Shown in pieces: positions 12,093 through 39,040 of a stretch of 64,000 nucleotides of DNA. The stretch's first letter is position 1. The number at the start of each line of letters is the position of its first letter. The stretch is from a virus (Duplodnaviria; Caudoviricetes): the IMG/VR virus record IMGVR_UViG_3300042462_000200, positions 1,874 to 65,873 of that record; one strand, 5' to 3'. A program made the translations under genes and the position numbers. Under the pieces are notes generated by a model. That model made no database searches and was not told the DNA's origin. It worked only from the letters and a program-made list of their open reading frames with translations.

Positions 12093-13052
12093 TTAAAAGT
12101 TGAAACCACGAGAAACCCGTTTCCCGCCCGTTTGTATTGGATAGAGGTATTCTGTGGCATATCTAATACCATCAGAAAAATGCTCTATACCTTCCGACTT
12201 ATCAATAGTCGCTATATCTAGATTACGGTCAGTCCATTTTGTTCTCTCTAATGATAAAATGGTACCGCTACATTTTGGATGCACATACAGGTCTATTTTA
12301 CCTGATGCGGTTTGTAACTTACGATTAACAGCTGCAACACTATCAACAATAGGAGGAGCTGCTCTATGCGCTTTACAAATAATCCCATTGGATTCTAGTA
12401 TACTGAAATCCGTTCGTCCCACCGGCGCAGAAGTCTTTCGAGATCTTCCTGATGGATCTGGGTATGCATAGATTTTGTGCCCTTCAAATTTGGTCTTAAG
12501 AGCGATAGCGAGGGCTTCAGTGTCTGGGTGTCCTTGCATCTCATCGATAAACTGCATCTGATGACCTCTGAGTGCGAATACACTAGAACATTGTCGCATG
12601 ACGTTAAAGTCGATACAGACATGTACATCTTCTCCTGGTTCAAAGTATTTTAAATGCCCATCTACATGTTTCTTTCTATCGAAACAATAAAAGACACTAT
12701 TACCAGATTCTGCAAATGAAGCCATATACTCTGATGCCCATGTTACAGGATCTAACTTATCCCTCAGTTTTTCAATTTCAACAGGATCTAAGAAAGGTGA
12801 CTGTAAATAATCATATTGCCAGAATCCCCAATCAGGATCAGACTCATGATACATACACATCTCATGAAAGAAGTTGTATCCTTTCGGTGTACTAATAAGT
12901 AAAGCTCTTCCAGGTGATTTAGCACCAACAGCTAATGCCCTTCTATTGCTCCAACGAGTTGCAATAGTAGGCTGTATTACGGACTGCCATGCCTCCTCAG
13001 CACTAATGCCTTTAGTACAAGAAGAGACTTCGTCCCAGACAACGAAGTATGC
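12093..13052 (-). CDS. terL: Terminase large subunit, exon 2
   Basis: Walker B YFVVWDE, ISTPKGYN, nuclease CIDFN, YPDPSG, HFSDGIRY; joins exon 1 in frame after splicing (442 aa total). Confidence 0.92.
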   Translation of the reverse strand, partial: AYFVVWDEVSSCTKGISAEEAWQSVIQPTIATRWSNRRALAVGAKSPGRALLISTPKGYNFFHEMCMYHESDPDWGFWQYDYLQSPFLDPVEIEKLRDKLDPVTWASEYMASFAESGNSVFYCFDRKKHVDGHLKYFEPGEDVHVCIDFNVMRQCSSVFALRGHQMQFIDEMQGHPDTEALAIALKTKFEGHKIYAYPDPSGRSRKTSAPVGRTDFSILESNGIICKAHRAAPPIVDSVAAVNRKLQTASGKIDLYVHPKCSGTILSLERTKWTDRNLDIATIDKSEGIEHFSDGIRYATEYLYPIQTGGKRVSRGFNF

Positions 13053-14000
13053 CATTGTGTTCAACAAAGGTCGTTAATCTCTGCCAGTTTTCTTTGCCGA
13101 TTTGTTAGTAGTTAATCCAAGTTTTACCTTGGCGTATTTGGTTTATTGTGCCTCTTGCAACATTAAAATGACGTCCTATTTCCGCATCATTTTTACTATC
13201 CTTAAACATTTGTCGAATAGTAGGAATGTCCGTTGGTGATAATTTCTTAACAGGATTAGCGGATAATAAAGGCAATGGATATGTAGCTATATGTTTCCAT
13301 ATCTTACCTAAACGGATACTGCTTATAGTACCTGAAGAAATATTATATTCATTGGCTAAAATATAATCAAGTTCACCATTTATCATCCTAGCTCTAATTG
13401 TAATAACATCATCTTCTGATAATCTGCGATTAGGTCTTAATAATCCTGTATCATATGCATGTTTAATATTCTCTGAGCCTGTCACCCACTCTAAGTTAGT
13501 TACATAATTATTTTGTTTATTACCATCAATATGATTAACTTGTGGCTTACCCTCTGGATTATCAATAAACAATGCTGCAACTAATCTGTGGACTCTGTGT
13601 CTTTCTCTAATACCATCATAAAATAGATCTACACATAAATAGCTTCTATTATTAGGAAATGGTTTTAATAATTCGTTATTTGAATTATAAATATTACCAA
13701 AATTGCTTATAGTATATTGTGTATCTTTAAATCTTTTAAATTCTTCTTTCATTGTAAATTTCACATGTACTCGGCAAAGTACTTCTATATATTACTATAT
13801 AGATCAGACTATATCTTAACATAATAAATTATGTCTTCCGCTTTTCGAGATCACTTGACCTCTATGAATTTCATCATCTGTTCTAGATGGTATATTCTAG
13901 TCGTTGAACCTTCAAAGTCTTCCCAGACTAGGCTTGGCTGCTGATTGTCCTTAAAGAGGAGTTTCCAGCAATTAACGGAATTTTACAAGGGCACTTGTTT
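13053..14000 (-). mobile_element. Group I self-splicing intron in terL (948 nt)
   Basis: 5' splice site after U in P1 (AAGGGU/GCCCUU, U-G wobble); P AAUUGCUGGAAA (13962-13973), Q AAUCAGCAGC (13937-13946), R GUUCAACGACUAGA (13896-13909), S AAGAUAUAGUC (13807-13817); P3 UUCCG/CGGAA; terminal G at 13053; splicing restores ERMRGKG-AYFVVWDE. Confidence 0.95.
13105..13764 (-). CDS. Intron-encoded HNH homing endonuclease
   Basis: Y.ISNFGNI (NUMOD4-like), VHRLVA..FI, VNHIDGNKQNN..NLEWVT..EN (HNH_3), two C-terminal HTH-like repeats. Confidence 0.92.
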   Translation of the reverse strand: MKFTMKEEFKRFKDTQYTISNFGNIYNSNNELLKPFPNNRSYLCVDLFYDGIRERHRVHRLVAALFIDNPEGKPQVNHIDGNKQNNYVTNLEWVTGSENIKHAYDTGLLRPNRRLSEDDVITIRARMINGELDYILANEYNISSGTISSIRLGKIWKHIATYPLPLLSANPVKKLSPTDIPTIRQMFKDSKNDAEIGRHFNVARGTINQIRQGKTWINY

Positions 14001-14369
14001 ACCCTTACCACGCATACGTTCAACCGATTCGTACGAGAGTAGTATTAACTCTACATTACTAGGAAATAAGAACCGTCCTGTATCGCGAGATGCTTTAATT
14101 GCATAATGCTCCATCCCAAGATCATAATGGATTAGCGGATAATAAATATCTTTTACCTGATCAAAGGTAGGAGCAATAATATATACCTTTTTATTAGGCA
14201 CATTAGCTGGTAATTCGAGTAGTTCGAACACAGCAGATATAGCAGCTACAGCAGCCTTATAGGACTTGCCCCAGCCACGAGCACAACACACAGTGGCATA
14301 TCTAACACTACGCTCAATAAATAAAGCACGATAAATTTCTGATTGTGCTGGATGTAATTCAATGGCCAT
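14001..14369 (-). CDS. terL: Terminase large subunit, exon 1
   Basis: LHPAQ Q-motif, Walker A CARGWGKS, IIAPTFDQ; ends ...ERMRGKG at the intron. Confidence 0.92.
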
Positions 14370-14541
14370 GAATAATCTCCAAGGCATCCGCTAATAATCT
14401 TAATAACGTAATGGCCATTACTAGTACTATCCAGCTGGATGTACTGAGCCATATACTTGATAGTACAATAATTATATTGAGGAACATACTTGGTACCATA
14501 TATAAAGAAAAGAATTTAAGACGCAAATAGAGAGCATCCAT
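14359..14541 (-). CDS. Small hydrophobic hypothetical protein
   Basis: 60 aa with two hydrophobic stretches, between terS and terL. Confidence 0.3.
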   Translation of the reverse strand: MDALYLRLKFFSLYMVPSMFLNIIIVLSSIWLSTSSWIVLVMAITLLRLLADALEIIHGH

Positions 14542-15003: not shown

Positions 15004-15066
15004 ACAAACCTCTAGTTTTTCAGTAAGATAGCACTTTTCGTAGTACTATTCTTTATTTTTAAAATA

Positions 15067-15083
15067 AGGGTTAATTTAACGGG
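15067..15083 (-). promoter_or_regulatory. Motif A copy (CCCGTTAAATTAACCC)
   Basis: Invariant 16-mer seen five times, always intergenic; this copy is upstream of terS. Confidence 0.7.
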
Positions 15084-15147
15084 TTCCATTAAAGGTACCT
15101 TTTAAGTATATTATTATAATAAGAATTATAATTCAGGGGGGACGTAA

Positions 15148-15164
15148 AGGGTTAATTTAACGGG
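15148..15164 (-). promoter_or_regulatory. Motif A copy
   Basis: Invariant 16-mer; flank AGAATTATAAT.CAGGGGGGACG shared with the 38857 copy. Confidence 0.7.
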
Positions 15165-15166
15165 GT

Positions 15167-17659: not shown

Positions 17660-17720
17660 GATAATACTCCAATAATAAAATAATTAAATATGTGTGTTTT
17701 CTATCTTCGTTTTTGAAAAT

Positions 17721-17737
17721 AGGGTTAATTTAACGGG
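17721..17737 (-). promoter_or_regulatory. Motif A copy
   Basis: Invariant 16-mer; downstream flank similar to the 15067 copy. Confidence 0.7.
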
Positions 17738-30936: not shown

Positions 30937-30965
30937 TTTTAAATCTCATGTATAAATGTTTAGAA

Positions 30966-30982
30966 GGGGTTAATTTAACGGG
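30966..30982 (-). promoter_or_regulatory. Motif A copy
   Basis: Invariant 16-mer directly upstream of the SSB/replication operon. Confidence 0.7.
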
Positions 30983-33029: not shown

Positions 33030-33352
33030 TTTAATTCCTCACTTCTATAGCCATACCAGCGATGTATGGGCGTTAAGGGAACACTAAGAAAACGAATTAT
33101 ATCTGTTTGCAAAACTGTAGGCTGTGGCTTACGCGGCAGTCTTCTCTTGTAGTTACCAGCAGCCTGTAGATCAGATAGCTTAAATAAACCTGCAAAATTC
33201 TTACCAACCTTTTTAAACTGATAAGGTCTGACACCTATCAAGGTTAACCTGTGACTCAATGTTTGATAGCATACTTCAAACTCGATACTCTCTAAATACT
33301 CACGAATTGTCATTAGCTGCATTCTTAAACCTCTATGCGAAAGCATATTCAC
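33020..33352 (-). CDS. Basic hypothetical protein, possibly DNA-binding
   Basis: MTIREY...V.YQTL..RL helix-turn-helix-like start; K/R-rich; directly after RNAP. Confidence 0.45.
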   Translation of the reverse strand: MNMLSHRGLRMQLMTIREYLESIEFEVCYQTLSHRLTLIGVRPYQFKKVGKNFAGLFKLSDLQAAGNYKRRLPRKPQPTVLQTDIIRFLSVPLTPIHRWYGYRSEELKWL

Positions 33353-35552
33353 TTTCTAAAATTAAATTAACATCCAGTTCGCCCATATCTAAATAACTTA
33401 GATCACCATTGATATTATCGATTAGGGGGAACAAAGGATTTTCTTGGTAAAGCTCGACAAAAGTATCACGCACACATTTATATAGCTTAGGCATATCTGC
33501 AAGCAGGCATCCATAAGAATCATGTATAGTCGTAATGGGAAAATCACACTTAACTGTTGTCATTGCTAAGTGCGCTGCATCCAATGAATGGATTACATTT
33601 GGTGCTGCTCCTTGAGACTGCTTTCCTTTTGAGGGTACTTGATCCTCAATAAAACATATATGTAATTGTAGATCATTTCCAAAGTATCCCGTGGTTTCGC
33701 TTCTAGTACCAATTCTAGGGCCCCATTGGATATGTATCTTTTTAGTACGACCTTCTGTGTAATTTTGTACTACAGGGAAATTTGTAACAGGTACTGTCCA
33801 TTCTAAGAATTTACCTTTCTTCTCAGCAGCTGCTCCAGCTTTCTCAAATACTTCTAATAGCATCATAGGCCTTTGCAAAGATTCTTTAGCATCTTCAAAT
33901 ACTAACCTCCCCATCCATGATGCCCATTTATGTTCCATATTCATTAACAACTCTATACCATGCTTCTTAGAGTCATCAATTTGTTGCTCTGACAAGCCAT
34001 AACCTGAACCTCCATACGGTAACGTCATTACATTTCTTTTAACAATTTTTCTACGTTGCTTGCTATCTTTAATTCTATGCCAAAATACTGGAGAAGCCTT
34101 TTCACCGACATCTGTCCATTTTGTTTTGTATGCTCTTATCTGTGACACTAATTGACTACGTAACTCTGATTTAGGTTCAGCAGCGACAATCTTTCTTTTT
34201 AACGCTATTAATCCATCAATAAACTCTTCGCACTCTAGTACTAAACTTGGTGACATTGCATTTACAATAGTCGAGATTTTACTCCATACATGATTAGCTA
34301 CGTATGCATATAGATCTCCAGGCATCTCTAGTGGTACTAAATTAACATACGGTGCTGTAATTTCGTCTCTAGTAAGAGCACTTAGATGCTGTGAGCCATT
34401 AGTAGAACCGTCAATGAAACACTCCACGTGAGACTCATACTGAAGATAACTAGAGCCCATACTTAACGCGTTCTTAAGCTCAATACAGGCAGCTAGGAAT
34501 TGCCAAGGCTTATCAGCTTCCATCCAGCCTTGATTTAATTTAGGTGAGAGTGCATACGCTGTTAATATTTCTTCATTGTCTAGTACCCATTGATATCTAT
34601 CTTTTAGTGGTATTTTATCTGTCTTAGCACCATCTTCTCTGCCTGAACTACCTGCCCAATTACTAGCAATTGATACACATAACCAAAAGAACCCATCTTG
34701 TCCAATAGCTTTCTTATCTTGACGCATTAAGAGACCCTTTGCAATATCAGAAGATTGTTCATGTAGATACGCTGTAGTTGGGTATTTACGACCTCTGAAG
34801 TCTAAATAGTACAAATGATAGAAAGGAATATCAGTAAACTTGTCTGCAATACTAAGAATAGCTTTAGTCTCTCTTAGTTTAGTTGTACGTGCCTGTGGAT
34901 TATGCTGTTCCCAAATATCGCTGAATGCTTCTGTTTTATTACTCAAGGCCCATTTAGCCACATTATAGACTTCTTTGTTAATTAACCAACCTACTCTTTG
35001 ACTTCTATTAATAGATTCAAATACAATTGGATGTGTTTCAGGTGTTAAGCTTTCTGCTACAACTCTTGATTGTGTCTTAACTAATACGGCACCTGCCTCG
35101 TGTCTAAAGCTTGTCCAATTTGCATATGGTGTTGCTGAGGGTAGTTTGCCTTTACCGCCTTGTCTTGATACTGTTTCCCATAGCTCCTGCATACTCTTTT
35201 CATCTACGACTTTAACTACGTATGTACCATGCCCATTAGCTGCACTAGTCATTACTATCTCTGTAAGGCCTAATTCTGCAAATGAGTATAAAATAAAAGC
35301 ACCACATCTAGCTGCTGTAGCTGAATCCTTCTTTTCGCCTTTTCGCATATTGTGACCAATGGCACAAATTACTTCTGACATTATAATTTCCTTGTCAGAA
35401 CCCTTTTTGGGTCTTGTGTACAAATATGTATTTGCAATAATCTCATCTAGATGCTCTTCTATCTCAAGCTTCTTTAAAAACTTTATTGGAGATTGGGGTG
35501 CAATTTCTACAGCAATTCTTGTACGTAAAGACTTTAATAACTTATTCCGCAT
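33333..35552 (-). CDS. Single-subunit (T7/T3-type) DNA-dependent RNA polymerase
   Basis: DFRGRKY, PWQFLA.C.E, motif A DGSTNGSQH, motif B RKIVKRNVMTLPYG, APNVIHSLDAAHL, motif C IHDSYG. Confidence 0.97.
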   Translation of the reverse strand: MRNKLLKSLRTRIAVEIAPQSPIKFLKKLEIEEHLDEIIANTYLYTRPKKGSDKEIIMSEVICAIGHNMRKGEKKDSATAARCGAFILYSFAELGLTEIVMTSAANGHGTYVVKVVDEKSMQELWETVSRQGGKGKLPSATPYANWTSFRHEAGAVLVKTQSRVVAESLTPETHPIVFESINRSQRVGWLINKEVYNVAKWALSNKTEAFSDIWEQHNPQARTTKLRETKAILSIADKFTDIPFYHLYYLDFRGRKYPTTAYLHEQSSDIAKGLLMRQDKKAIGQDGFFWLCVSIASNWAGSSGREDGAKTDKIPLKDRYQWVLDNEEILTAYALSPKLNQGWMEADKPWQFLAACIELKNALSMGSSYLQYESHVECFIDGSTNGSQHLSALTRDEITAPYVNLVPLEMPGDLYAYVANHVWSKISTIVNAMSPSLVLECEEFIDGLIALKRKIVAAEPKSELRSQLVSQIRAYKTKWTDVGEKASPVFWHRIKDSKQRRKIVKRNVMTLPYGGSGYGLSEQQIDDSKKHGIELLMNMEHKWASWMGRLVFEDAKESLQRPMMLLEVFEKAGAAAEKKGKFLEWTVPVTNFPVVQNYTEGRTKKIHIQWGPRIGTRSETTGYFGNDLQLHICFIEDQVPSKGKQSQGAAPNVIHSLDAAHLAMTTVKCDFPITTIHDSYGCLLADMPKLYKCVRDTFVELYQENPLFPLIDNINGDLSYLDMGELDVNLILESEYAFA

Positions 35553-35812: not shown

Positions 35813-36130
35813 TTACACAGTTTCTATAAATCTTGGTTTGTACCTATTAACCAAGGTTAAAAGCCTTGGAATTTTTTCCTTTAACACATAAAATGGTATT
35901 GGAATTGTTCCTGTTAAATCTGCTACAGCTACTACATCTGCGAAGTCCCATCCGAAACCACACATGAATTTTTCTACATCTTCCATTACAACCAATTGAC
36001 TTGCGTCAACTTCACGCACCGTTTGTCTATATACTAATGGAGATAAGAATAGATCACCAGGAGCTTCTTCATTTAAAACCTTTTCAGTTGCAACTGGATA
36101 GAAACCTTGAAGTCTTATATTAGCTACCAT
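35813..36130 (-). CDS. Early-region hypothetical protein
   Basis: 105 aa, GGAG RBS. Confidence 0.55.
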   Translation of the reverse strand: MVANIRLQGFYPVATEKVLNEEAPGDLFLSPLVYRQTVREVDASQLVVMEDVEKFMCGFGWDFADVVAVADLTGTIPIPFYVLKEKIPRLLTLVNRYKPRFIETV

Positions 36131-36293
36131 TTGTAAATCTCCGTGTCAATTCAGATACTTGGTACCCTATGATTAGCAATAATACAGCGATTAATAATAA
36201 CGCTACTTTGTAAAGAAGCGCACCTACATACAACATTGTAATTGCTACTAAAATAGTTAGCAATGTATAGAAAGCAAATTTTAATTTCATAAA

Positions 36294-36551
36294 TCACCAA
36301 AAAACTGAAGGATGCATGATTGCATATACTAAGTTACAACCAGAAGTTATAACAATTGATACCCAGAAGATCAATTCCCACAAGTTGATAACAACAATGT
36401 GCGCATGATTCTTTCTGGCTTGACGTACTTTGAAGTAACCAACAATGGTTAATGCAAACGTTACAATCATAATTAAACCCATAGGGCTTAACAGTGTTTC
36501 CATAAAGATTTCAAATGGAGACATGAACAAGTGTGAAATAAAAGTAAACAT
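36294..36551 (-). CDS. Early-region membrane protein
   Basis: Two hydrophobic helices, GAGG RBS. Confidence 0.55.
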   Translation of the reverse strand: MFTFISHLFMSPFEIFMETLLSPMGLIMIVTFALTIVGYFKVRQARKNHAHIVVINLWELIFWVSIVITSGCNLVYAIMHPSVFW

Positions 36552-36562
36552 AATAATATCCT

Positions 36563-36883
36563 CTATGCGAAATCTTCGCCATTAAATTTTCGTTGTAGTT
36601 TTTCGATCTGCTCTTCAAGATCTTTAGCTTTTTGATTAGCTTCTTCTGTTGGGATTTCAAACGTAGGCTTTCCGCCAATGTTGATTGTAAAGACAGGCGT
36701 TTGAAGCACATTAACCATCTCATTAAGAACTTTGAGCAGTCTTTGTACATTGGCTTTGTCTCCAGCCTTCTCGCTCTCTTCTAACTGTCTTTCCATCTCT
36801 TTGACAGCTTCATAGCTCATATCCGAAATATTAAGCCAAGCTATAATTGCATCGTCAACCTTTTTCAGCAGTTTATTAAGCAT
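36563..36883 (-). CDS. Early-region coiled-coil protein
   Basis: 106 aa; overlaps the upstream stop. Confidence 0.55.
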   Translation of the reverse strand: MLNKLLKKVDDAIIAWLNISDMSYEAVKEMERQLEESEKAGDKANVQRLLKVLNEMVNVLQTPVFTINIGGKPTFEIPTEEANQKAKDLEEQIEKLQRKFNGEDFA

Positions 36884-37052
36884 GACGTTCTCTCGCTAAT
36901 CTTTCAAGTTTCATTACTAAAGCTTTCGCTTCAAGCTTAGCTACTAGCTCATCAGCAGCCTGTTGATCTTCTCTCCAAGCATTTAAAAGCTCTCTAGCTT
37001 CATCAGTTGTTTTTCTGTCAGTTAAGAAATAATCTTTAATTTTACTAAACAT
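36876..37052 (-). CDS. Early-region small protein downstream of the ribozyme (58 aa)
   Basis: TTGGAGTATTACC-ATG RBS cassette places the start at 37052 (MFSKIKDY...). Confidence 0.6.
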   Translation of the reverse strand: MFSKIKDYFLTDRKTTDEARELLNAWREDQQAADELVAKLEAKALVMKLERLARERHA

Positions 37053-37071
37053 GGTAATACTCCAAATAATT

Positions 37072-37128
37072 AAGTGTTTCGGTTCTTTTGAACCATCATC
37101 AGTATGGGATACACATCCCTTAGACACT
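37072..37128 (-). ncRNA. Type III hammerhead ribozyme
   Basis: AGUGUC^UAAGGGAU-GUGU-AUCCCAUA-CUGAUGA-U-GGUUC-AAAA-GAACC-GAAACACU: intact CUGAUGA/GAAA core, three stems, GUC cleavage triplet; predicted cut between 37123 and 37122. Confidence 0.85.
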
Positions 37129-37157
37129 AAGCAGTTTAAAGACCTGCTCAGGTCTTT
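37129..37157 (-). ncRNA. H-type pseudoknot element, copy 1
   Basis: AAAGAC-CU-GAGCA-G-GUCUUU-AAAC-UGCUU, directly 5' of the hammerhead. Confidence 0.55.
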
Positions 37158-37159
37158 TG

Positions 37160-37306
37160 TTAGCATTTAAGCTTAGCTTGCATTTCAGCTAGCATTTTAG
37201 CAAACTCTTTATCACCATCCAATGCTTTGATTCTAGCATCGTGTTCAATTTTCATTGCTAATAATTTTGCATCAACAGATGCTTGTGCTGCTTGTACTGG
37301 GTTCAT
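37160..37306 (-). CDS. Early-region small helical protein (48 aa)
   Basis: TTGGAGTATTATC-ATG RBS cassette; MNPVQAAQASVDAKLLAMKIEHDARIK...; below the track cutoff. Confidence 0.6.
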   Translation of the reverse strand: MNPVQAAQASVDAKLLAMKIEHDARIKALDGDKEFAKMLAEMQAKLKC

Positions 37307-37339
37307 GATAATACTCCAAAGTTAGTTGTTGGTACTATA

Positions 37340-37576
37340 TTATACATTGACATACAGTTGAACATACTCGCCCAACTCACGTTCTTCTAGGCTCACGATG
37401 TAGACAGACTCTTCTCTGCCTTCTATAAGACGCGCGATAGTTGCTGCCGCACCAGTGAGAAATGCAATCCCATTCAGTACGTGCCCTTTTACTTGTTCAT
37501 TTTCGAATACTACGGTGCCAGCCTCTGTAGTTCTAGTTATTGAAAATGTGTTATTGAATAATTTAATTGTGTTCAT
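37340..37576 (-). CDS. Early-region hypothetical protein
   Basis: Same RBS cassette; downstream of a motif B copy. Confidence 0.6.
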   Translation of the reverse strand: MNTIKLFNNTFSITRTTEAGTVVFENEQVKGHVLNGIAFLTGAAATIARLIEGREESVYIVSLEERELGEYVQLYVNV

Positions 37577-37616
37577 GGTAATACTCCAAATAGTTAGTTG
37601 ATTGAGGTACCTTATT

Positions 37617-37646
37617 GTACTTCATATAAGATACCATTATTCCCGC
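37617..37646 (-). promoter_or_regulatory. Motif B copy (GCGG-N8-GTATCTTATATGAAGTAC)
   Basis: Identical 18-mer plus GCGG at fixed spacing, seen three times, each upstream of an RBS. Confidence 0.7.
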
Positions 37647-37649
37647 GTT

Positions 37650-37847
37650 TTACAAAGACTCCCCATGCAGATGGGGCTGATACTCCCGGTGACCTGCACG
37701 TCCTCCGCATCCATCGCAGGACACATAGACTTCTGATAGAGTACCATTACGGTACACATTTAAAGAACAGTCTTCTACATCTAAGACTGCCGTCATAGGA
37801 CTGCCACAATCGTAGCACTCACCATAGGGTTGTGATAGAATAATCAT
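37650..37847 (-). CDS. Small Zn-ribbon protein
   Basis: CYDC...CDGC; GAGG RBS. Confidence 0.55.
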   Translation of the reverse strand: MIILSQPYGECYDCGSPMTAVLDVEDCSLNVYRNGTLSEVYVSCDGCGGRAGHREYQPHLHGESL

Positions 37848-37885
37848 TTTAAATTCCTCTTTAAAGTTAGTTGGGGTACCTTATT

Positions 37886-37915
37886 GTACTTCATATAAGA
37901 TACCCCCTTTTCCGC
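37886..37915 (-). promoter_or_regulatory. Motif B copy
   Basis: Same motif as 37617-37646. Confidence 0.7.
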
Positions 37916-37919
37916 GTTT

Positions 37920-38078
37920 TTATTTATAAGATTTTGTCAATCTTGTGCGATCCCACTTACGCACTCGTGTATACAATCTGTATTGCTCGCAGTCATCTGC
38001 AAACACATTATACAAAACATATACACAAAAGAACCCTACAGCTAGCATAGCTTCTATAAAAGGAATCCAATCGTTCAT
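37920..38078 (-). CDS. Small single-TM protein
   Basis: MNDWIPFIEAMLAVGFFCVYVLY...; ATGA-coupled. Confidence 0.45.
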   Translation of the reverse strand: MNDWIPFIEAMLAVGFFCVYVLYNVFADDCEQYRLYTRVRKWDRTRLTKSYK

Positions 38079-38374
38079 AATACTAATAATCCTTGTTGAT
38101 AGAGGTGTCCCTCTGTTAATACATTTAATTTGTAAACATCTATTTCCAGCAGCTCTAATAATGCTGTGAACGACTCTAGCCGTTGGCCATCCCAATGTAC
38201 ATGATTCCAGCTATACTGGTAATTAGCGCCAATTTTAAGACGTGCCTCAGCACTATCTAGTAGTGAGATACATTCATTATAACATTCTGACTCAAATATT
38301 TCATACTCGAAAACACTGTGTGCTCTTACTCTTACATCCGTTACCATGTCAACTATAAACATTACTGTACTCAT
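38075..38374 (-). CDS. Early-region hypothetical protein
   Basis: 99 aa, TAATG-coupled. Confidence 0.55.
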   Translation of the reverse strand: MSTVMFIVDMVTDVRVRAHSVFEYEIFESECYNECISLLDSAEARLKIGANYQYSWNHVHWDGQRLESFTALLELLEIDVYKLNVLTEGHLYQQGLLVL

Positions 38375-38769
38375 TATTTAATCCCCTGTTCTTTAAGCCA
38401 TTTCTTAATAGCTTTCTTATCTTCAAAGTTAGCAACGACGCCCGTCAAGTCTTCATATACAGTATACAAAGTATAAGTACAATCAATATTCTGTATAAAC
38501 CTGCTGTAAGCTTCATGTCCGTTGTGTCTAATAGTCATTGTAGCTGGCACATAATAATGATCAGCCCAGGGTCTCCATTGAAACAACGAATCATTTTCCT
38601 CTAAAGATTTCCAAAGGAATTCTTCTAAAGACTTGTATTCTAAGGTTGTATACATATTAAACCACTTGTGTGATCTCCACACAGGTAAAAACTCAGCCAT
38701 GTCTGCAACGATATTGCCATAAACAACAGCAACTGTTTTACGATCTTTTGTAGCAATTAATCTTAACAT
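38374..38769 (-). CDS. Early-region hypothetical protein
   Basis: TTGGAG RBS supports the ATG at 38769 (MLRLIATKD...). Confidence 0.6.
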   Translation of the reverse strand: MLRLIATKDRKTVAVVYGNIVADMAEFLPVWRSHKWFNMYTTLEYKSLEEFLWKSLEENDSLFQWRPWADHYYVPATMTIRHNGHEAYSRFIQNIDCTYTLYTVYEDLTGVVANFEDKKAIKKWLKEQGIK

Positions 38770-38823: not shown

Positions 38824-38856
38824 ATTATTAGAATTATAATACAGGGGGGACGGAGA

Positions 38857-38873
38857 AGGGTTAATTTAACGGG
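38857..38873 (-). promoter_or_regulatory. Motif A copy
   Basis: Invariant 16-mer at the head of the early region. Confidence 0.7.
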
Positions 38874-39040
38874 TTTGTTGTGCGTAAAAAACGGGTAGCA
38901 ACCAGCCACAGAACTACCCATTCTGCAACCAGAAACCACCCGTCTTGCCCCGCAACTGCCGCCCCGATCCCTCAGCCATGCCCCACGCCACGCGTGCCAC
39001 AGGCGACCAGTTTGCAAATCTGCCCCTCTCTGCCCCGTTT

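Follow-up and report, generated by a model that had tools for sequence, protein, structure and literature searches.

The early mRNA of phage T7 is cut between its early cistrons by RNase III. Self-cutting RNAs are also found in phages: the excerpted text of Perreault et al. (2011; PMC3088659) describes hammerhead ribozymes in phage intergenic regions (PaP3, Bcep176) and beside genes in prophages, their cleavage of polycistronic RNAs of about 2 kb in vitro, and, in the halovirus HF2, a hammerhead 13 nt before an early gene whose transcript has its 5' end no more than 3 nt from the hammerhead site. Although phage hammerheads have been known since 2011, the excerpted text of PMC13725137 still calls their role elusive. 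Here we describe a cassette on the minus strand of a 64,000-nucleotide stretch (hereafter designated the window; positions 1,874 to 65,873 of the 65.9-kb viral record IMGVR_UViG_3300042462_000200), in which an H-type pseudoknot of 27 nt directly precedes a type III hammerhead between a 48-aa and a 58-aa open reading frame (ORF). We estimate at about 70% the probability that this cassette is a cis-acting RNA processing element of an early, host-polymerase-transcribed operon in a phage of about 78 kb that encodes its own RNA polymerase. As judged from the comparisons below, the segment 37128..37073 is a genuine type III hammerhead and an additional member of an already known ribozyme type; hammerheads in phages being known already, the new part is its fusion with an independent, widespread pseudoknot module.

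The window hammerhead resembles the phage hammerheads of PMC3088659 (excerpted text) and the Rfam family RF00008 in its catalytic core, three-helix junction and open helix III, and the former also in its intergenic place in a polycistronic phage transcript near the next start codon. It differs from the RF00008 type in a sub-threshold score, an extra U after A9, and the loops of its lineage (GUGU as loop 1, an A-rich loop 2). Moreover, the pseudoknots described in that excerpt join loop I to the tail of stem II, whereas the pseudoknot of the window lies upstream and is a different element. When the sequence of the cassette was read, no long RNase III-type hairpin was seen in it. The parallel with T7 is functional only: in both, a cut would fall between early cistrons and leave a folded 3' end on the upstream piece, but in T7 a host protein acts on a double-stranded hairpin and leaves a 5'-phosphate and a 3'-OH, whereas the RNA of the window would cut itself, with a 5'-OH and a 2',3'-cyclic phosphate as the predicted ends. 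By analogy, the cassette would replace RNase III processing as it occurs in T7.

Each part of the cassette that an earlier, sequence-only reading had named is present on the minus strand at the position given there (Table 1), and the pseudoknot does abut a complete hammerhead (37128 adjoins 37129), followed by a ribosome-binding site and an ATG as that reading had it. The sequence and its alignment to the RF00008 consensus showed that the core C3-U4-G5-A6-N7-G8-A9 and G12-A13-A14 is complete (CUGAUGA, and GAA at 37080-37078), that the cleavage triplet GUC has the form N-U-H, with U37124 paired with A37077 and C as H17, and that helix III is open, both the 5' and the 3' end of the ribozyme sitting there. 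The direct contact of A9 with the pair G10.1-C11.1, itself present, is broken by the inserted U 37095. A permissive scan of 301 nt (36950-37250) returned a full-length match to RF00008 (Hammerhead_3) of 27.7 bits (E 5e-4), which is under the gathering score of 48.5 bits, and a default Rfam scan of the window therefore misses the hammerhead and reports only a group I intron. Thus the search with Rfam hammerhead models, which the sequence-only reading had proposed, recovers the fold over its full length but not at the family's own threshold. A custom motif scanner found one site in the real window against 0.12 minimal sites per dinucleotide-shuffled window, and a site with stems of equal length in 0/60 shuffled windows. 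Taken alone, the hammerhead segment folds as a hammerhead, with a minimum free energy (MFE) of −14.2 kcal/mol.

Relatives of the window were collected with its single-subunit RNA polymerase gene (33333..35552, minus strand) as bait, which yielded 62 related loci from viral contigs. The closest cultured relatives by this polymerase are the roseophages DSS3_VP1 and DSS3_PM1 (33% identity), and a DNA similarity search of 36000-38500 found no similarity to cultured phages. The genome of a relative with a 98%-identical polymerase is complete at 78,236 bp and bears terminal repeats, and L001 (polymerase 98% identical) bears a hammerhead identical to that of the window. Upstream of the polymerase gene, the motif scanner detected hammerheads in L001, L002, L003, L005 (two) and L013 (two). 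In a search of 663,724 bases, the covariance model R1, which was built from four relatives with the window excluded, scored the element at 43.2 bits (E 8.8e-9), the sole match in the window at E ≤10, and found no hammerhead within the loci of L006-L012 and L014-L018; loci that were fetched later and searched gave further hammerhead lineages. The four records searched contained one or two hammerheads per genome; where there are two, all matches are no more than about 550 bases apart.

When 15 distinct hammerheads were aligned, standard pairs were formed in 95.5% of 223 cells and 12 of the 15 pairs were altered on both sides, values that none of 500 shuffles matched, and pairing fell to 31–50% when, as a control, the partner columns were slid by 1–3 positions. 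The three helices are thus backed by covariation, which the sequence-only reading had proposed to look for in related phages. The core is invariant in all 15 except at N7, the pair U16.1-A15.1 is kept in 15/15, H17 is C or A throughout, and the GUGU loop 1 and the A-rich tetraloop of loop 2 are conserved in most members of the set. The hammerheads are 49–54 nt long, with differences that are not multiples of 3, and the reading frame is therefore not conserved; what the relatives keep is the core and the stems. In the unrelated L089 lineage an extra U likewise follows A9, together with a different stem II, and L100:1082-1134 is nearly the ribozyme of the window minus the extra U. This recurrence agrees with the earlier statement that an extra nucleotide is tolerated here, as does the excerpted text of PMC3705267, reporting De la Pena and Flores (2001), in which an extra A lowers the trans-cleavage rate only moderately and a U at this place raises the rate 3–4-fold in one viroid hammerhead. 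Of 14 hammerheads, 13 end 14–27 nt ahead of a start codon. Different genes flank the cassettes in different genomes, and two downstream gene families retain hammerheads of differing sequence (one in the window and L081, the other in L005, L078 and L089). A pseudoknot-like element followed by an R1-family hammerhead (54.8 bits) was also observed in L259, a 19-kb genome-bin contig of an uncultured gammaproteobacterial metagenome-assembled genome; this contig probably represents a prophage, or else a phage contig that was grouped into the bin.

The bare H-type topology is not significant, with 29 generic sites in the window and 16–30 in shuffles, and the pseudoknot could therefore be validated only through comparison with other sequences. 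Its S1 hairpin loop, UGAGCA, has 6 bases, 5 of which (GAGCA) are able to pair with UGCUU to form S2, and in the window copy S1 can be extended to AAAGACC/GGUCUUU (37157-37138), which begins 2 nt past the stop. Three scans of viral contigs were performed with the motif NNNCC-U-GRGYA-GGNNN-NUAAAN-UGCYY, each with a different part left free. With S1 fixed and the tail free, 46 loci were obtained. By eye, most of their tails read NUAAANNGCYY, and the purine of the loop changes together with the pyrimidine of the tail (GAG with CUC or CUU, GGG with CCC). With the loop and tail fixed and S1 free except for its closing pair, all five S1 pairs were formed in 84 of the 121 viral matches listed, the fully paired ones comprising 17 different stem sequences with G.U pairs that suit this strand only, whereas the same pattern in a background of 596 Gb of bacterial and archaeal genomes gave full pairing in 12 of the 122 matches listed. 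With S1 and UAAA fixed and both S2 strands free, all five S2 pairs were formed in 30 of 108 matches (expected, about 0.7%), in the variants GAGUA/UGCUC, GGGUA/UGCCC, GGACA/UGUCU and AAGUA/UGCUU. By these independent scans both helices are backed by covariation, which supports as genuine the H-type pseudoknot called by the sequence-only reading. Its geometry (1-nt L1, 6-nt L3) is compatible with the coexistence of S1 and S2, although S1 might instead alternate with a hairpin made from the S2 strands.

Rfam 15 contains no family-consistent match over 37129-37155 at E ≤10, the overlaps being at chance level (tsr26 on the other strand, E 3.2; RT-14, E 7.3), and word searches of open-access text found no description of the pseudoknot module. 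The window itself contains one exact copy, with 2–3-mismatch matches at chance level (8 found, 3.7 expected). When the cassette was compared with cultured phages by BLAST, only the pseudoknot part was matched, in Acaryochloris phage A-HIS1, the crAss-like phages cr7_1 and cr124_1, Anoxybacillus phage A403, two Cylindrospermopsis phages and four Lactobacillus helveticus phages (phiAQ113 included). The match is intergenic and on the coding strand in the 3 records inspected, and in phiAQ113 and A403 it has the portal and minor-head genes on its upstream side and the scaffold and capsid genes on its downstream side, and is followed by a U-run. From these comparisons, the pseudoknot is a member of an uncatalogued family, with loops that hardly vary, that is common in viral contigs and at or near background level in bacterial genomes.

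The pseudoknot precedes 10 of the 15 hammerheads, 1–4 nt before stem III; two others have a degenerate version, and three have none (L002 and the second copies of L005 and L013). In that second copy of L013 (L013:4700-4810), a G+C-rich hairpin with a U-run, resembling an intrinsic terminator, sits upstream instead. Among 73 unique, strictly paired copies of the pseudoknot, the next element is a hammerhead in 9, a U-run within 14 nt in 14, a GIR1-like RNA in 1, and another element in 33, including G+C-rich terminator-like hairpins, tandem copies and unidentified conserved RNAs. On the upstream side, 45 of 70 unique copies lie 0–12 nt past an ORF end, counting ORFs of 35 codons or more, as against 138 of 1400 random positions in the same loci, and the distances from stop to pseudoknot (2–40 nt) peak at 5–9 nt (38/70). 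This place, just behind a stop codon and just before something that makes or marks an RNA end, favours a role at the 3' end, and our best guess is that the pseudoknot would serve as a compact 3'-end cap and insulator behind the terminating ribosome. Tentatively, and with considerable doubt, one may go further and regard it as a widespread viral RNA module, a factor-independent cap that would resist 3'-5' exonucleases, shield its partner from the ribosome, and be teamed with interchangeable end-making devices (type III hammerheads, U-runs and GIR1-like ribozymes) in double-stranded DNA phages of cyanobacteria, Firmicutes and Bacteroidota and in tombus-like RNA-virus contigs.

Other identities for the pseudoknot were considered and rejected. 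A readthrough or frameshift stimulator is contradicted by the stop-to-pseudoknot distances, which have no 3-nt periodicity, and by a UGA three codons past the stop in the window. The preQ1-I riboswitch and ToxI, taken by their sequences as generally known, are alike in size and in an A-rich linker able to lie in the S1 groove; both were discarded on architecture, the element having no unpaired loop residues for a ligand pocket and occurring in single copies, not in tandem 36-nt repeats beside a toxin gene; nor does any Rfam family match it at E ≤10. The class 3 exonuclease-resistant RNAs of plant viruses, as given in excerpts of PMC6299227 and PMC12397905, are likewise small viral elements whose hairpin loop pairs with a strand further downstream; they are often intergenic, shortly before a coding region, and are proposed to block an exonuclease. 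According to the former excerpt (PMC6299227) they have helices P1 and P2 and conserved internal loops L1 and L2B and block the 5'-3' enzyme Xrn1, whereas the phage pseudoknot, 27 nt long, has a single 5-bp stem, uses its whole 6-nt loop and would face 3'-5' enzymes; membership was rejected on architecture, the motif having no second stem or internal loop. Conserved RNAs stand directly after the pseudoknot in L065/L082/L092/L107, in L126/L197/L198/L220, and in L212, L373 and L111, one group being about 80 nt long in contigs of 43–174 kb and another containing GGUGGUGGG.GGCGAAAA; those of these RNAs that were scanned gave no Rfam match at E ≤0.5. Tandem copies of the pseudoknot are 6–30 nt apart. 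A tRNA seen by eye directly after the pseudoknot in L131 was discarded, as ARAGORN finds none.

To our knowledge, lariat-capping ribozymes are known only from the twin-ribozyme introns of a few protists. The same pseudoknot lies at the 5' edge of a GIR1-like RNA (RF01807) in some small viral contigs, whereas the window has no GIR1-like RNA. The GIR1-like matches (Table 1) are full-length with conserved core words but sub-threshold, at 58.6, 42, 31.5 and 27 bits against a gathering score of 100. L072 shows the order polymerase-like ORF (5' end open), pseudoknot, GIR1-like RNA and coat ORF, the first being RNA-polymerase-like and the last having a Viral_coat S domain (34.2 bits, cut-off 23); in L072 and L160, a start codon lies 3 nt past CAU, the lariat-forming CAU in GIR1. 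The GIR1-like core word occurs in at least 120 contigs of 1.2–6.2 kb, with a relaxed pseudoknot upstream in only 8 of 119 GIR1-like loci. Our literature search surfaced no paper on lariat-capping ribozymes in phages or RNA viruses, and the words lariat and GIR1 do not occur in the text of PMC13725137.

According to the mechanism that we propose for the processing element, the pseudoknot would fold 2–5 nt past the stop of the 48-aa gene as the minus-strand transcript emerges, and the type III hammerhead would fold next and, in the cell, presumably cut itself after C37123. The upstream RNA would then end in pseudoknot-AGUGUC with a 2',3'-cyclic phosphate, and the downstream RNA would carry a 5'-OH on U37122, the first base of stem I and already paired, the message for the 58-aa protein opening with two folded hairpins (stem I and stem II) 21 nt before its start codon. 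The polycistronic early message would in this way be split into units with their own end structures and, we infer, their own stabilities. Since RNase E recognizes 5'-monophosphate ends that are single-stranded, and stable structures halt 3' exonucleases, both cut ends are expected to be poor entry points for nucleases, with the pseudoknot presumably protecting the upstream 3' end.

Several observations weigh against a processing role. Besides the low RF00008 score, the hammerhead has an extra U in its core, an A.A mismatch in stem I and a stem III of only 5 pairs. A ribosome site and start codon lie within 45 nt in 16 of the 73 pseudoknot copies, which a 3'-cap role fits less well. Four metatranscriptomes over 36000-38500 gave contigs of relatives only, one starting at 37062 and another ending at 37179, and none of them covers 37063-37178; as contigs are unable to show RNA ends, this speaks neither for nor against cleavage. 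Moreover, nested folding of 37157-37073 favours a long hairpin, GACCUGAGCAG with CUGCUUAG-GUC, that hides the cleavage site: it pairs the 5' strand and loop of S1 with the tail, the stem III strand and GUC, and amounts to −29.4 kcal/mol compared with −20.8 kcal/mol for the S1 hairpin plus the hammerhead, in an energy model without the pseudoknot. This competing hairpin may make cleavage in the window copy regulated or strictly co-transcriptional. It could accordingly be part of a switch, in which the pseudoknot permits the hammerhead in place of a long hairpin swallowing the 5' strand of stem III and GUC, and in which cleavage and downstream expression would be governed by translation of the upstream ORF or by some factor; a ribosome on the stop codon, 2–5 nt upstream, would melt S1. 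Both the nested MFE structure and the peak of stop distances at 5–9 nt, which by its generally known geometry is near the entry channel of a terminating ribosome, speak for a switch, as does a similar competitor in L089, L115 and partly L013. We nevertheless consider it unlikely, since the extended competitor is missing in the other 5 of 9 cassettes, where the MFE structure is the hammerhead, since pseudoknots are beyond scoring by the energy model, and since in compact phage intergenic regions any element at all would lie close to a stop. A hairpin with a flush 3' end, formed after cleavage, is present in the window, L089 and L115 and partly in L013, but was rejected as a conserved trait of the family, 5 of the 9 cassettes lacking it.

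That the hammerhead is an inactive look-alike, made a dead relic by the extra U, the stem I mismatch or the competing hairpin, would be in line with its sub-threshold Rfam score, yet this appears very unlikely in view of the identical hammerhead in L001, the extra U in the independent L089 with its different stem II, and the moderate loss with an extra A and gain with a U in the excerpted account of PMC3705267. The cassette could also be selfish or neutral, a module passed from phage to phage by recombination at gene boundaries, with little benefit from cleavage. This reading would account for near-identical pseudoknots between unrelated genes, for the presence of the pseudoknot in very different phages, and for the relatives in whose loci R1 found no hammerhead; it is quite unlikely, as compensatory change preserves the core and stems across lineages, the distance to the next start codon stays constant at 14–27 nt, and the same downstream family retains differing hammerheads. 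There is, finally, the ORF list, which gives a 96-aa ORF (36876..37166) spanning the element in a frame open from ATG 37166, so that the stretch might code for the N-terminal part of that ORF. The chance of this is negligible. The 58-aa homologues in L001 and L081 begin at the equivalent Met, after their own hammerheads, with the N-terminus MF(S/N)KIK conserved (ATG 37052 behind GGAG in the window), and in L081, which has a different hammerhead upstream, the frame before the homologous Met contains three stop codons. The 96-aa extension is therefore taken as an artefact, and the frame-breaking lengths of the hammerheads agree. By this comparison the cassette is non-coding and the true downstream start is ATG 37052, which confirms the earlier suspicion that the ORF track hides the cassette.

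The cassette belongs to a cluster of small ORFs that share its strand and precede the phage RNA polymerase gene, consistent with the early transcript assumed before; for the 10 neighbouring small ORFs, neither Pfam nor PHROG gave a significant family. On the same strand, the cassette is preceded by three promoter-like repeats, each about 56 nt long, and followed by the polymerase gene. This layout fits an early operon, and the repeats may be tandem early promoters. Contigs from RNA runs pile up on two of the three. A strong terminator-like hairpin separates the last small early ORF from the polymerase gene, and expression of the polymerase from early promoters would therefore need read-through. 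A further repeat, GGGTTAATTTAACGGG, may be a promoter used by the RNA polymerase that the phage encodes. The group I intron seems to interrupt a gene resembling that of a terminase large subunit, as judged by eye from a Walker-A-like GWGKS; the ORFs of that region are 13983..14387, 13105..13764 and 12093..13067, and a 219-aa ORF with an HNH-like motif is carried.

Table 1 Parts of the cassette, other features of the window, and GIR1-like matches in other contigs
Feature	Position	Strand	Basis or remark
Upstream 48-aa ORF	37160..37306	-	stop UAA 37162-37160; no Pfam/PHROG family
H-type pseudoknot, 27 nt	37129..37155	-	sequence; sole exact copy within window
Pseudoknot S1	AGACC 37155-37151 / GGUCU 37144-37140	-	sequence
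Pseudoknot L1	U 37150	-	sequence
Pseudoknot S2	GAGCA 37149-37145 / UGCUU 37133-37129	-	sequence
Pseudoknot L3 linker	UUAAAC 37139-37134	-	sequence
Type III hammerhead	37073..37128	-	RF00008 match, model R1, covariation, shuffle control
Hammerhead stem III	AGUGU 37128-37124 / ACACU 37077-37073	-	sequence; 5 pairs
Cleavage triplet GUC	37125-37123	-	C17 = 37123; predicted scissile bond 37123/37122
Hammerhead stem I	UAAGGGAU 37122-37115 / AUCCCAUA 37110-37103	-	7/8 pairs, one A.A
Hammerhead loop 1	GUGU 37114-37111	-	sequence
Hammerhead core	CUGAUGA 37102-37096	-	sequence
Extra U after A9	37095	-	sequence
Hammerhead stem II	GGUUC 37094-37090 / GAACC 37085-37081	-	sequence
Hammerhead loop 2	AAAA 37089-37086	-	sequence
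GAAA segment	37080-37077	-	sequence
Ribosome-binding site GGAG	37060..37063	-	7-nt spacer to start codon
Downstream 58-aa ORF (MFSKIK...)	36876..37052	-	start ATG 37052-37050; homologues in L001, L081
Repeats of about 56 nt, 68-100% alike	37596-37651, 37865-37920, 38773-38828	gene strand	upstream of cassette
Repeat GGGTTAATTTAACGGG (minus strand CCCGTTAAATTAACCC)	15050-15083, 15116-15166, 17704-17737, 30949-30982, 38824-38874		candidate promoter
Terminator-like hairpin, 14 pairs, 9 G-C	35806-35775	-	between last small early ORF and RNA polymerase gene
Group I intron	13785-14042	-	Rfam 85.7 bits, gathering score 50
GIR1-like matches	L134:143-333(-), L160:169-331(-), L181:293-557(+), L072:610-751(+); also L458-L577		contigs of 1.2-6.2 kb

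With its fixed place in the early operon, its constant distance to the start codon and its defined partner element, the hammerhead lineage offers a clean testable case, and the presence of the pseudoknot in cultured phages (phiAQ113, A403, A-HIS1) opens its function to bench testing. Natural ribozyme insulators already serve RNA engineering; if the pseudoknot is indeed a minimal exonuclease-resistant or insulating cap, it would be useful as a part for such work. Should it also prove to be a widespread module teamed with interchangeable end-making devices, the cassette of the window would be one instance of modular viral RNA punctuation.

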